Source: an uncultured Solirubrobacterales bacterium
GTDB lineage: Bacteria; Actinomycetota; Thermoleophilia; Solirubrobacterales; Solirubrobacteraceae
Length of the DNA: 64,000 bases
Direction of reading: 5' to 3'
Assembly: GCA_963815565.1 (NCBI GenBank)
Contig: CAWFHB010000003.1
Coordinates: 470,329 to 534,328, forward strand
Below, in pieces: positions 37,036-52,878 of this stretch; positions within the stretch are counted from its first letter, which is position 1; every line of letters begins with the position of its first letter. The position numbers and the translations under genes are program-made. The notes under the pieces are model-generated. The model worked only from the letters and a program-made list of their open reading frames with translations. It was not told the DNA's origin and did not search any database.

Positions 37036-38191
37036 TCAGCGCTCGTCGAGCCGAGCGACCGCGGCGACGAGGCGGTCGACCTCGTCGAGGCTCGTGTAGT
37101 GCGCGGCCCCGGCGCGAACGGCACCCTCAGCGCTTAGGCCGAGGAGGTCAGCGAGCCCGAGCGCGTAGAAGGAGCCGGCGCCCACGGCGATCTGCTCGTC
37201 GGCGAGCCGCTCGGCCACCGCGGCCGGCGTATGCCCCTCCACCGTGAAGAAGGCGGTCGGCGTCCGCCGGGCGGGAGCGCCGAGGAGGCGGACGCCGGGC
37301 AGCGCCCCGAGGCCGCCGACGAGCGCCGCGGTGAGCGCGTCCTCGTGCTGCGTGATCGCCGGCCACCACGTCGCGGCCAGGTAGTCGGCCGCCGCGCCCG
37401 CCGCGGCGAGGAGCTCGAAGGGCTGGGTGCCCTGGTCGAAGCGGTCCGCGCCCACGTCCGAGGACGCACGCAGCTTGTCGACGGCCAGCTCCGCGAGCAG
37501 CCCGGGCGCGCCGCACAGCACGCCGAGGTGCGGGCCGAACCATTTGTAGGCCGAGCAGACCGCGAGGTCGCAGCCGAGCGCGGCGAGGTCGAGCTCGATG
37601 TGCGGCGCAGCGTGCACGGCGTCGAGGAAGACCCGGGCACCGACGCCGTGTGCGAGCTCGGTGATCGCGCGTACGTCGGTGATCGCACCGGCGACGTTGC
37701 TGGCCGCGGGGAACGCGACCCAGCGGGTGCGATCGCAGAGCTCGGCTGCGACCGCCTCGGGGTGGAGCTCGAGCGTGACGGGATCGGGGTCGACGACGCG
37801 GAGCGTCGCGCCGGAACGCTCGGCGGCGAGCTCCCACGGGCGGACGTTCGCGTCGTGGTCCAGGCGGGTGACCACGAGCTGGTCGCCCGGGCCGAGCGTG
37901 CGCTCGATCGCCCCTGCGACGCGGAAGGTGAGCGCGGTCATCGACGGACCGAAGACGACGCCCTCCGGGTCGGCGCCGAGCAGCGTGGCTACGGACGCCC
38001 GCGCCGTCGTCGGTGACCTCACGGGTCCGGCGGGAGGCCGGGAACGAGCCGCCGTAGTTCGCGAACGCACCGCTGCTCAGGTAGTCGGTCGTCGCGGCGA
38101 TGGCGGCGTCGACGGGCTGGGTGCCGCCAGGGGCGTCGAAGCGGGCCCAGCCGTCGGCCAGGCCGGGGAAGCGTTCACGGTTGAGGCCCAT
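37036..38191 (-). CDS. Cysteine-desulfurase-like PLP enzyme (class V aminotransferase), one frameshift near 38005
   Basis: RERFPGLADGWARFDAPGGTQ...ANYGG in ORF 37148-38248, continuing as LVVTRLDHDANVRPW, AASNVAG, LDAVH, CSAYKWFGPH in ORF 37036-38070. Confidence 0.88.
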
Positions 38192-38766
38192 GCGGGGATG
38201 GTCCCAGAACGCGAGAACCCCGCACGGGGGCGGGGTTCTCGACGACAAGTGGCGGGTCCAGGATTCGAACCTGGGAACTCAGAGAGGCAGCGTTTACAGC
38301 GCTGTGCGTTTGACCGCTTCGCTAACCCGCCGGGGCGCGTGAGGGTAGCGAAACCGCGCGCCAGCGCGGCGTCGAGCGGCGGCCCGGCCTCGACCTCGAA
38401 CTCGGCGTACTTCGAGCCGCCGACGCAGATGGCGGTGGTGGCCTGGATGTGGCGCGATGCGATCCGCCACCGTCGCCCGTCGACGGTGACCACGAACAGC
38501 ACATCGCATCGTGCCGGAGAGAAATGCTTGACGATCTTGTTCCACGACTGGTTGCCCCCGCGTGTGCAGACGGACACGATCCAGTTGCCGTGCCGCGAGC
38601 GTTGCCCGCTGGACTTGACCTGAACCGTGACCGGCCCGCTTCCGTCGTCGGCAATGAAGTCGTAGTCCGGGCTTCGCCCGAGCGGCACGAAGACGCAGGC
38701 GCCGCGCTGTTCGTACCACGCCCGCGCCGAGGCCTCGCCCAAGTCCCCTTGCTGCTGACGGTTCAT
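38077..38766 (-). CDS. PD-(D/E)XK endonuclease of the group-I-intron-associated (PDDEXK_5-like) family; ORF reads through tRNA-Tyr
   Basis: QQQGDLGEA...FVPLGRSPDYDFIAD...VQVKS...TRGGNQSW...CDVLFVVT; nuclease-like part ends near 38390 and the rest translates the tRNA and terminator. Confidence 0.85.
   Translation of the reverse strand: MNRQQQGDLGEASARAWYEQRGACVFVPLGRSPDYDFIADDGSGPVTVQVKSSGQRSRHGNWIVSVCTRGGNQSWNKIVKHFSPARCDVLFVVTVDGRRWRIASRHIQATTAICVGGSKYAEFEVEAGPPLDAALARGFATLTRPGGLAKRSNAQRCKRCLSEFPGSNPGPATCRREPRPRAGFSRSGTIPAWASTVNASPAWPTAGPASTPLAAPSPSTPPSPRRPTT
38212..38241 (-). terminator. Terminator hairpin downstream of tRNA-Tyr
   Basis: Perfect 12-bp stem CGAGAACCCCGC / GCGGGGTTCTCG with 6-nt loop. 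Confidence 0.75.
38250..38331 (-). tRNA. tRNA-Tyr(GTA)
   Basis: GGCGGGT/ACCCGCC acceptor stem with A discriminator, CAGCG-CTGTAAA-CGCTG anticodon arm, long variable arm, GGTTCGAATCC T-arm; uninterrupted. Confidence 0.97.
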
Positions 38767-38770
38767 GGAA

Positions 38771-38784
38771 CGAACATACGTTCG
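38771..38784. promoter_or_regulatory. LexA (SOS) box overlapping the leaderless -10 of the endonuclease
   Basis: CGAAC-ATAC-GTTCG, matching the Gram-positive/actinobacterial GAAC-N4-GTTC consensus; on the - strand TATGTT (38778-38773) lies 6 nt before ATG 38766. Confidence 0.8.
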
Positions 38785-38808
38785 CCGCCGGACGGATCCG
38801 GCGGCGAA
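38781..38808 (-). terminator. Hairpin terminator after the sigma factor gene
   Basis: Perfect 12-bp stem TTCGCCGCCGGA / TCCGGCGGCGAA with CGGA loop. Confidence 0.7.
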
Positions 38809-38819
38809 GCAGGCCCGCG

Positions 38820-39965
38820 TCAGCTGGCGTCGCGCAGCCGCTGCGCCTCGGGCAGCGACTCGAGCTTCTTCAGCGTGTGGTTCTCGATCTGGCGGATGCG
38901 CTCGCGCGTCACGTTGAAGGCACGGCCGACCTCCTCCAGGGTGCGGGGTCGCTGGCCGGTGAGGCCGAAGCGCATCTCGATGACCTCACGCTCCCGCTGC
39001 GGCAGCGCCGCCAGCGCACGGTGCACGTTCTCCTTGCGCAGGTTGTCGGAGGCCATGTCGAACGGGGAGACCGCGTTCTCGTCCTCGACGAAGTCGCCGA
39101 GCTCGGACTCCTCCTCCTCGCCGATCGGCTTCTCGAGCGAGATCGGCTGCTGGCTCATCCGGAGGATGTCGCGCACCTCCTTCTCGGTCACGTCGAGCTC
39201 GAGCGCGATCTCCGCCGGGCAGGGCTCGCGGCCGAGCGACTGCACGAGCTGGCGCTCGACGTGCACGACCTTGTTGAGCTTCTCGACCATGTGGACCGGG
39301 ATGCGGATCGTGCGGCCCTTGTCGGCGATGGCGCGCGTGACGGCCTGGCGGATCCACCAGGTCGCGTAGGTGGAGAACTTGTAGCCGCGGCGGTAGTCGA
39401 ACTTCTCGACCGCGCGGATGAGCCCGAGCGAGCCCTCCTGGATCAGGTCGAGGAAGGTCAGCCCGCGGCCGAGGTAGCCCTTGGCGATCGAGACGACAAG
39501 GCGCAGGTTGGCCTCGACCATCTGCTGCTTGGCGTCCATGTCGCCGCGCTCGATCCGCTTCGCGAGCGAGACCTCCTGCTGGGCGGTGAGCAGCGAGACG
39601 CGTCCGATGGAGCGCAGGTACAGCCGCAGCGAGTCGAGCGACGGCTCGACGGTGAGATCGATGGAGGCCTTCTTCGGCCCGTCCTCGGTCGGCTGCCGGC
39701 GGGCGCGCGCCGCGTTCTCGACCTTCTCCGACTCGCTCGTGGCGAGCTTGCCGGTCGCCCCGACGACGTCGATGCCGTGCTCGACGAGGTAGGCGTGCAG
39801 CTCGGTGATCTGCTCCTTGCTGACCTCCACCTCCTCGAGCGCGGCGGAGATCTGCTCGAAGGTGAGGACGCCCTTGTCCTGCCCCTCCGCGATCAGCGAT
39901 TTGAGCTCGTCCATCTCGACGATGGGTGCCTCATCCGCCAACAGCACTTCCGCTTTCGTGCTCAT
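38820..39965 (-). CDS. RpoD/SigA-type sigma-70 factor with region 1.1
   Basis: [16 protein letters not shown] (1.1), [11 protein letters not shown] (1.2), [14 protein letters not shown]...[26 protein letters not shown] (2.4), [21 protein letters not shown] (4.2). Confidence 0.95.
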
Positions 39966-52747: not shown

Positions 52748-52878
52748 ACCCGCGACCTACCCCGCCCCTCGTCGCCGGAACCTGACCGTGTCGACGGAGC
52801 ACGCGCGACGGAAATCCTGTTCTATGACGAAACACGGGGCCGCCTGGGAGGCGGCCCGTCCCCGGAGGAGAGCGATAC

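Follow-up and report, generated by a model that had tools for sequence, protein, structure and literature searches.

A Predicted LexA-Controlled Homing-Type Endonuclease Gene Whose Reading Frame Runs through tRNA-Tyr in a Solirubrobacterales Genome

In a window of 64,000 nt from an uncultured Solirubrobacterales bacterium (contig CAWFHB010000003.1, positions 470,329 to 534,328; "the window" is this whole stretch), we studied a minus-strand gene for a PD-(D/E)XK nuclease whose open reading frame (ORF) contains a complete tRNA-Tyr gene. We consider it likely that the gene is free-standing, encodes an endonuclease of the I-Ssp6803I family, is repressed by LexA, and sits as an insert between the terminator of rpoD and the promoter of tRNA-Tyr, that it belongs to a lineage straddling tRNA genes, that it has lost the second domain of that lineage, and that its overrun through the tRNA comes from one extra base. 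The ORF occupies 38766-38077 (-) and encodes 229 aa, staying open throughout to a TGA at 38079-38077. As a preliminary description of the sequence had reported, it runs through the entire tRNA-Tyr gene, which ARAGORN and Rfam both detect and which sits inside the ORF on the same strand with no stop between. The features of the locus are as follows.

38783..38806 (-): inverted repeat cgccgccgga-tccg-tccggcggcg, following the stop codon of rpoD (38822-38820), read from the sequence
38771..38784 (-): predicted LexA (SOS) box CGAAC-GTAT-GTTCG, a perfect palindrome (CGAACGTATGTTCG), read from the sequence
38374..38766 (-): conserved nuclease domain of the PD-(D/E)XK type (I-Ssp6803I / PF11645 family), residues M1 to L131
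38332..38373 (-): nonconserved linker carrying the putative tRNA-Tyr promoter and an extra G (38355/38354), from a hand alignment with the relatives G008 and G004
38342..38347 (-): TACCCT, −10-like box of the putative tRNA-Tyr promoter, 10 nt upstream of the tRNA, from conservation
38249/50-38331 (-): tRNA-Tyr(GTA), uninterrupted, from ARAGORN and Rfam (60.4 bits)
38210..38244 (-): terminator-like hairpin 3' of the tRNA
38077..38248 (-): nonhomologous run-on of the ORF, crossing the hairpin and then, in a different frame, the opening codons of the gene that follows
37036..38191 (-): class-V aminotransferase-like gene downstream, so named on inspection of the sequence

An I-Ssp6803I-Family Nuclease without an Intron

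The preliminary description had taken the product for a PD-(D/E)XK nuclease similar to the homing endonucleases of group I introns, with no intron present, and both parts of that assignment stand. The Pfam profile PF11645 (PDDEXK_5) matches residues 1-92 at 36.2 bits against a cut-off of 26.1, and a profile search of the PDB returned 2OST, the structure of I-Ssp6803I, at E = 5e-6 with the D...VQVK stretch aligned; identity between I-Ssp6803I and the window protein is only about 20%. A model of residues 1-145 computed with AlphaFold2 (predicted local distance difference test, pLDDT, 84; predicted template modeling score, pTM, 0.80) had chains of 2OST as its top four Foldseek matches, with template modeling (TM) scores of 0.57-0.70 and the best value, 0.70, over 136 columns, and the next matches were archaeal Hjc resolvases and EcoRV. 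A large protein collection contained 1802 homologues, mostly 135-150 aa long. An alignment of 20 homologues (alignment A1) has invariant E11, D34, D36, V50, and K51 and an almost invariant Q49; the window protein keeps them all, and the acidic and lysine residues among them form a putative active-site motif. Across 37500-39500, Rfam (E <= 1) matched the tRNA only, with no intron, and PADLOC found no match to a defense system, its sole return being a generic "homing endonuclease" model. Taken together, these results support a free-standing, intronless endonuclease gene of the I-Ssp6803I (PF11645) family.

I-Ssp6803I has its gene inside a group I intron of the tRNA-fMet gene of Synechocystis. 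The acting form of the enzyme is a tetramer, and its site is a 23-bp pseudo-palindrome (PMC3384342). The window gene shares with it the PF11645 family, the D...QxK signature in the hidden Markov model (HMM) alignment, and the link to a tRNA gene, and I-Ssp6803I is its best structural match. On the other hand, I-Ssp6803I is intron-encoded, whereas the window gene lacks an intron, lies upstream of tRNA-Tyr, and carries a predicted LexA box, and its sister lineages continue through the tRNA into a second domain. If our reading is true, the PD-(D/E)XK homing family would grow to include, besides a single intron-borne enzyme of a cyanobacterium, hundreds of genes that stand free on chromosomes.

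Linkage of Nuclease Clades to tRNA Genes

The selfish-nuclease reading offered earlier for this locus, with a free-standing gene docked at the 5' end of a tRNA, is well supported by comparison, and the docking most strongly. The tRNA-Tyr(GTA) gene follows immediately, in the same orientation, at 9 of 9 loci from relatives and at all 80 loci of a sample from other species, all of them Solirubrobacterales/Thermoleophilia, and the ends of the homologue matches range from about 11 nt inside the tRNA to 66 nt before it. The linked tRNA is the sole tRNA-Tyr match in four complete chromosomes, and the window genome likewise has a single tRNA-Tyr gene, the one at 38249-38331 (3.49-Mb assembly searched). 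Sampling 30 PF11645 loci across 401 Actinomycetota genomes, we found 29 adjoining a tRNA gene within about 0-270 nt, mostly <150 nt, the tRNAs being Arg(TCT), Thr(TGT), Ala(GGC), Ala(TGC), Tyr(GTA), and Ser(TGA); most of these ORFs stop a few bases before the tRNA, stop at its nucleotides 8-10, or cross it.

The linkage goes beyond conserved gene order. When tRNA identity is mapped onto the tree of nuclease clades, it changes six times, the minimum possible, against a mean of 20.3 for shuffled data, in which 0 of 200 replicates were as low, and a single host family may hold three nuclease clades. In another clade, 79 of 80 loci lie 5' of tRNA-Ala(GGC). The tRNA-Tyr and tRNA-Ala clades span 344 and 253 species, respectively. 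Homologues with 35-39% identity are also present in T5-like Vibrio phages, within tRNA clusters, where gp100 of Chester overlaps tRNA-Tyr by 16 nt and gp101 of Pylo abuts tRNA-Pro; the position of the nuclease thus differs between these related phages (L157 and L158). One tRNA per clade would agree with the view that intron-borne endonucleases were preceded by free-standing ones at conserved sites.

Several other small hypothetical ORFs in the tRNA clusters of Chester and Pylo reach exactly to the 5' end of the following tRNA or extend into it (e.g., PYLO_94 and tRNA-Glu, PYLO_106 and tRNA-Thr, CHESTER_105 and tRNA-Pro), and abutting the 5' ends of tRNAs may be a general habit of ORFs in T5-like clusters. 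The window genome itself has a second PF11645 gene (L142, C5:343651-344046, plus strand), which is more canonical at 97 bits and whose open frame converges on the 3' end of tRNA-Ala(TGC). This genome thus holds two tRNA-linked nucleases, each from its own clade, and has an empty site at tRNA-Ala(GGC) (C7:422258-422333).

Predicted LexA Control of the Nuclease Gene

The putative LexA box ends 4 nt before the ATG of the nuclease. Embedded in it is a −10-like hexamer, TATGTT (38778-38773), with its last base 6 nt short of that ATG, and the arrangement suggests that the nuclease promoter is leaderless and repressed by LexA. On the upstream side, the first bases of the box are overlapped by the 3' arm of the inverted repeat that follows rpoD, a likely terminator of that gene. 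Consensus scans of 37800-39000 for sigma-70 promoters and intrinsic terminators found none, the patterns used suiting a high-G+C actinobacterium poorly.

The identical type of motif precedes lexA, recA, dnaE2, an imuB-like gene, uvrA, radA, and recN in the window genome, the identities of LexA and RecA being backed by Pfam, and CGAAC-N4-GTTCG occurs at 16 sites in the genome where 2.9 are expected. Among the relatives' loci, 8 of 10 have an exact box. In the tRNA-Tyr clade, a box with at most one mismatch is found upstream of 41 of 80 genes and many of the others are recognizably degenerate; in the tRNA-Ala clade, it is exact at 54 of 80 and has one mismatch at 3 more (57/80). Control stretches contained no exact box, and 4 of 78 had one with a single mismatch. 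We predict from these patterns that the nuclease gene is a member of the SOS regulon, and a nuclease of this kind would then be added to the LexA regulon in an actinobacterial class that has been little studied.

Perfect CGAAC-N4-GTTCG boxes in the window genome also precede small unidentified proteins (at C3:378942, C5:239759, and C7:666405). Some of the box-preceded small proteins have N termini resembling a helix-turn-helix (e.g., MPGRSEWRGGLSREQLEPLVDAGRSLAQIGRELGVS...), and they are possibly further mobile or regulatory genes under SOS control.

Intact, Decayed, and Empty Alleles at One Junction

The nuclease gene is present in 13 of 41 close relatives. Within one genus, the same rpoD/tRNA-Tyr junction occurs with intact, pseudogene, remnant, and clean empty alleles, distributed over the genomes of close relatives as follows.

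Intact copies: G000, G008, G006, G021
Copies with internal stops: G001, G032; fragmented or frameshifted copy: G004
Internal-deletion remnants keeping only the ends: G014, G020, G035
Clean empty sites: G012, G010, with the rpoD stop 40-85 nt from the tRNA

What the empty sites of G012 and G010 lack is exactly the segment from the LexA box and the −10 element through the nuclease domain, and the insert thus consists of the predicted operator and promoter and the ORF, placed between the likely rpoD terminator and the tRNA promoter. The TACCCT at 38347-38342, named in the preliminary description as a candidate −10 box of the tRNA, is present, and it belongs to the tRNA and not to the nuclease, because a TANNNT box is found at that position in occupied, decayed, and empty sites alike (19 genomes). 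It is a putative promoter element.

This pattern of occupancy is that expected of a free-standing homing endonuclease gene, and the comparison of alleles points to mobility by homing. Its closest described analogue is the GIY-YIG homing endonuclease SegB, encoded by a free-standing gene within a tRNA cluster of phage T4; the site of SegB includes the conserved T-psi-C motif of tRNAs, and the enzyme was shown experimentally to drive the inheritance of itself and of flanking tRNA genes (PMC2330249). Both nucleases are free-standing genes among or beside tRNA genes and are present or absent between relatives, and phage homologues of the window protein reside in T5-like tRNA clusters. The two differ in fold (GIY-YIG vs. 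PD-(D/E)XK) and in setting (a phage genome vs. a bacterial chromosome); SegB has no SOS control and no ORF continuous through a tRNA, and its homing is experimental, whereas that of the window gene is inferred by comparison.

The same data could come from a domesticated host gene, that is, an SOS-induced nuclease for repair or recombination or a toxin-antitoxin-like stress module, inherited vertically and with its tRNA neighborhood a relic of an old insertion. A LexA box conserved across two clades and a single copy per tRNA site would fit such a gene, and so would a nuclease domain that is intact, with its invariant residues, in more than 80 species, the antitoxin type of the C-terminal domains in the sister clades (below), and the PADLOC result. 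We nevertheless find domestication unlikely, given the patchy distribution among close relatives and the coexistence of clean empty sites, internal-deletion remnants, and pseudogenes in a single genus; the same tight geometry recurs at six tRNA species and in phage tRNA clusters, and the sole characterized relative, a homing endonuclease, has a tRNA gene as its target.

The tRNA-Tyr genes of this genus, compared between L029-L035 and L017-L028, are of two sequence types, with the D-arm TAGCGAAG... or TTCCTGAG..., and nuclease genes, remnants, and recognizable empty sites were seen only with the first type (TAGCGAAG...), which may reflect phylogeny or target specificity. We compared the tRNA-Tyr sequences of occupied and empty sites for an immunity mutation; the restriction of the gene to one tRNA type may merely follow phylogeny, and the comparison yielded no target site.

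Sister Clades Keep the Frame through the tRNA into a Second Domain

Stop positions at the 80 tRNA-Tyr loci vary: the nuclease frame ends before the tRNA at 38 loci, inside it at 6, and beyond it at 36. An outcome that the preliminary description had named as refuting it, homologues that are not enriched next to tRNAs and normally stop before them, was not observed: the homologues are enriched there, and just 38 of the 80 stop before the tRNA. At 34 loci, the tRNA is followed by a MazE/AbrB-like domain (Pfam PF04014, E = 5e-5; the NCBIfam AbrB model scores below its cut-off), which usually lacks a start codon of its own. The domain lies in the nuclease frame, with no stop between, in 31 of the 34 cases (binomial P = 3e-12 against one-third), and the AbrB-type domain of these fusions occurs only together with the nuclease.

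To describe how the frame is kept, we measured the distances between four landmarks: the nuclease start, the 5' end of the tRNA, its T-loop, and the KRRVTLP motif in the second domain. Taken modulo three, the lengths of the resulting three segments fall into five combinations, all of which sum to zero, and the 16 total lengths found at the tRNA-Tyr fusion loci (555-642 nt) are every one a multiple of three. Since the frame stays continuous through five such combinations and 16 lengths, the repeated compensation of insertions and deletions (indels) is the mark of selection for one continuous frame. In the tRNA-Ala(GGC) clade, a Phd/YefM-like domain (NCBIfam phd_fam, 23.7 bits against a cut-off of 20.8; Pfam PF02604, E = 3e-6) follows the tRNA at 69 loci and is in frame through the whole tRNA at 65 of them; the 12 different lengths from nuclease to tRNA and the 11 from tRNA to domain (105-153 nt) are again all multiples of three. 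The sister clades thus provide about 100 natural cases of an essential tRNA lying in frame inside a protein gene, with statistical backing for the maintenance of the frame.

An AlphaFold model of one fusion gave confident structures for the nuclease and the small C-terminal domain and a pLDDT of <50 for the stretch encoded by the tRNA, which is thus modeled as a disordered linker. On the nuclease tree, the fusion loci form two deep groups, one of which has the pair of the window gene and G008 as its sister; an ancestral fusion form is thus probable, and so is loss of the second domain in the window lineage. Continuity of the frame across the tRNA is not kept in the window's own subclade, and we found no similarity of the window tail after the tRNA to a MazE/AbrB-like domain or to anything else with which it was compared. 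Adaptation of the tRNA to translation, in the form of TAG avoidance at nucleotides 8-10 in fusion loci, was considered and set aside: fusion and nuclease-only loci showed no clear difference, and most tRNA-Tyr genes have two open frames.

A One-Base Register Shift between the Window Gene and Its Closest Relatives

The closest intact genomic relative of the window gene is the copy of G008, from the same genus and 67% identical; that of G004 is decayed. The nuclease frames of both end at a TAG formed by the tRNA nucleotides U8-A9-G10, and seven of the closest metagenomic homologues end in ...(P/A)AG, as CC-GGC-GGG-(A/T)TAG encodes in that frame. From the EAGPPL codons to the block GTTTCGCTACCCTC, which the window and the relatives have in common together with its 9-nt spacing to the tRNA, we counted 37 nt in the window and 36 nt in G008 and G004. 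The difference maps to positions 38355/38354, where the window has GG and the relatives a single G, and removal of one base in silico gives the ending ...VSLPSRAPAG-stop. By this alignment, the overrun is a one-base departure from the normal state of the subclade, and it is probably accidental.

The consequence of the base depends on the tRNA. Nucleotide 1 of the tRNA falls on codon position 1 of the nuclease frame, which is the only one of the three frames of tRNA-Tyr without a stop (translation GGLAKRSNAQRCKRCLSEFPGSNPGPA); the others stop at TAG (nucleotides 8-10) and at TAA (nucleotides 36-38). The extra base in the linker would thus shift translation into the tRNA's sole stop-free frame and add 84 meaningless codons, a tail to which we attribute no function. 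Past the tRNA, the frame crosses the terminator hairpin noted in the preliminary description, which folds at −29.3 kcal/mol (z = −4.4) and is kept in G004 and G008. The overrun by itself is unremarkable, because 48% of random frames in the window genome stay open for 84 codons or more. With a G+C content of 72%, the median distance to the next stop from random positions is 77 codons, and the length of the overrun, taken alone, is not beyond chance. For the window alone, the lesson is that a long overrun is cheap at 72% G+C and may rest on a single base.

Several observations count against parts of our reading. The MazE and Phd matches in Pfam fall just under the gathering scores, and the tree behind the ancestral fusion form is weak, with Shimodaira–Hasegawa-like approximate likelihood ratio test (SH-aLRT) values of 83-94 from 132 columns. 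Nuclease identity correlates weakly with RpoD identity, at a Spearman coefficient of 0.16 (1275 pairs), in a comparison where RpoD resolves poorly and may include paralogues and which establishes neither horizontal spread nor strictly vertical inheritance. The combination of conserved LexA box and single-copy state, as said, would also suit a host gene. Finally, the window and G008 differ by three frameshift-like junctions in about 12 kb of coding sequence, and the extra base at 38355/38354 may be an assembly error.

If it were, the true gene would have one G fewer and end at the TAG of tRNA nucleotides 8-10, encoding ~147 aa. The ending restored in silico matches those of the closest homologues, the extra base sits within a run of G, and the window genome is a metagenome-assembled genome (MAG) of eight contigs. 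Only 330 nt away, the aminotransferase-like gene shows a net +1-nt frameshift at about 38005-38008 (tblastn with the intact G008 homologue; frame change at 38009-38004), and there are two more frameshift-like junctions in the window, at about 52770-52840 and about 53376, one coding-like G008 ORF of 772 aa spreading over three window frames. For this comparison, we used only ORFs with coding-like G+C content at third codon positions and left out shadow-frame ORFs; G008 in turn shows three similar junctions against the window. An artifact is nonetheless doubtful in our view, as run-on ORFs without a second domain are also found in relatives' short-read assemblies (L058, L087, and L121), so that real cases exist, and as the 42-nt linker is a small target for random error. 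The aminotransferase-like gene at 37036-38191 is either a pseudogene or affected by an assembly indel, and the junctions near 52800 and 53376 suggest indel errors or gene decay.

A Proposed Competition between Translation and tRNA Processing

For the family as a whole, we put forward a broader proposal, tentatively and with less confidence than our reading of the window gene. In Thermoleophilia (Solirubrobacterales and relatives), SOS-controlled ORFs for homing-type nucleases would straddle the essential single-copy genes for tRNA-Tyr or tRNA-Ala(GGC), which serve as an in-frame linker to a MazE/AbrB- or Phd-type domain; RNase P and 3' processing, competing with ribosomes, would set the dose of full-length protein, with cut messages passing to transfer-messenger RNA (tmRNA), and the window gene would be a decayed member.

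Part of this belongs to our main reading. Each clade of the homing-type lineage is tied to one tRNA gene. The nuclease genes have no terminator of their own, and about half have no stop codon, before the tRNA, so that the frame and, by inference, the transcript often run into it. In what is probably the older form, the nuclease is connected, by a frame without stops across the entire tRNA, to a small domain for DNA binding or dimerization. In the mechanism that we propose, the tRNA would be made from its own promoter during normal growth, whereas after DNA damage a long transcript would extend from the nuclease start through the tRNA, and ribosomes and RNase P would compete for it. The cotranscription of nuclease and tRNA that this presupposes is predicted from the gene arrangement. 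In the fusion clades, only unprocessed transcripts would give the two-domain protein, and the conservation of its C-terminal domain implies that ribosomes get through the tRNA often enough to be useful. Transcripts that are processed would be left without a stop and go to tmRNA, which the window genome encodes (tag ADSHEYALAA). The window gene would yield either the 229-aa protein with a junk tail or stop-less fragments, and nothing suggests selection for its particular state.

The preliminary description had seen in the missing stop a selected, built-in limiter: cleavage by RNase P at 38331 or termination at the hairpin would leave a stop-less message, and tmRNA tagging would keep a toxic nuclease scarce. 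Some of the ingredients are there, as the genome has a tmRNA gene and a stop before the tRNA is absent from the window gene and from 42 of 80 homologues; in relatives with the TAG at tRNA nucleotides 8-10, cleavage by RNase P would remove the stop as well, and the dependence of full-length fusion protein on unprocessed transcripts would make rivalry of processing with translation an inherent property of the family. For selB/selC, a comparable proposal is in print (PMC8124441). Yet the stop position is not conserved among nuclease-only relatives, lying before, inside, or beyond the tRNA, an ordinary stop precedes the tRNA in 38 of 80 homologues, and run-ons as long occur in 48% of random frames. 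We saw no sign that the overrun of the window gene is a designed limiter; its nearest relatives, one base away in register, stop at TAG, and its tail has no homologue. We regard selection for the missing stop as quite improbable; RNase P cleavage and tmRNA tagging are plausible as mere consequences of the overrun.

Nor is the coupling without precedent, as had been supposed. The tRNA-Sec gene selC is nested in the selB ORF of Alphaproteobacteria; the author of that study called it the first tRNA gene nested within an ORF of bacteria and proposed that the tRNA, by folding and being processed, represses full-length SelB (Mukai 2021, PMC8124441). In both systems, a complete tRNA gene lies inside a protein ORF of the same strand, and the logic of repression is that of the limiter. 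However, SelB is an elongation factor with a different biology and its tRNA lies within a C-terminal extension, whereas in the sister clades the tRNA lies between two recognizable domains of a nuclease gene and in the window the sequence after it is meaningless. This was the only published bacterial parallel that we found, and searches of the literature for PF11645 and for stop codons inside tRNAs gave no description of the tRNA-straddling lineage. Homing endonucleases that stand free and adjoin tRNA genes are thus a known kind, as are nested tRNA genes, and the straddling lineage, with its predicted SOS control, appears to be a variant of both. It would make testable how ribosomes and tRNA processing share one transcript and whether their competition doses a dangerous enzyme.

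Among the fusion-type loci, the second domain is out of the nuclease frame at L088, L093, L101, L173, L191, L202, and L204. Most of these come from long-read MAGs, and the shift may stem from an indel in the assembly or from a fusion that has begun to decay recently.

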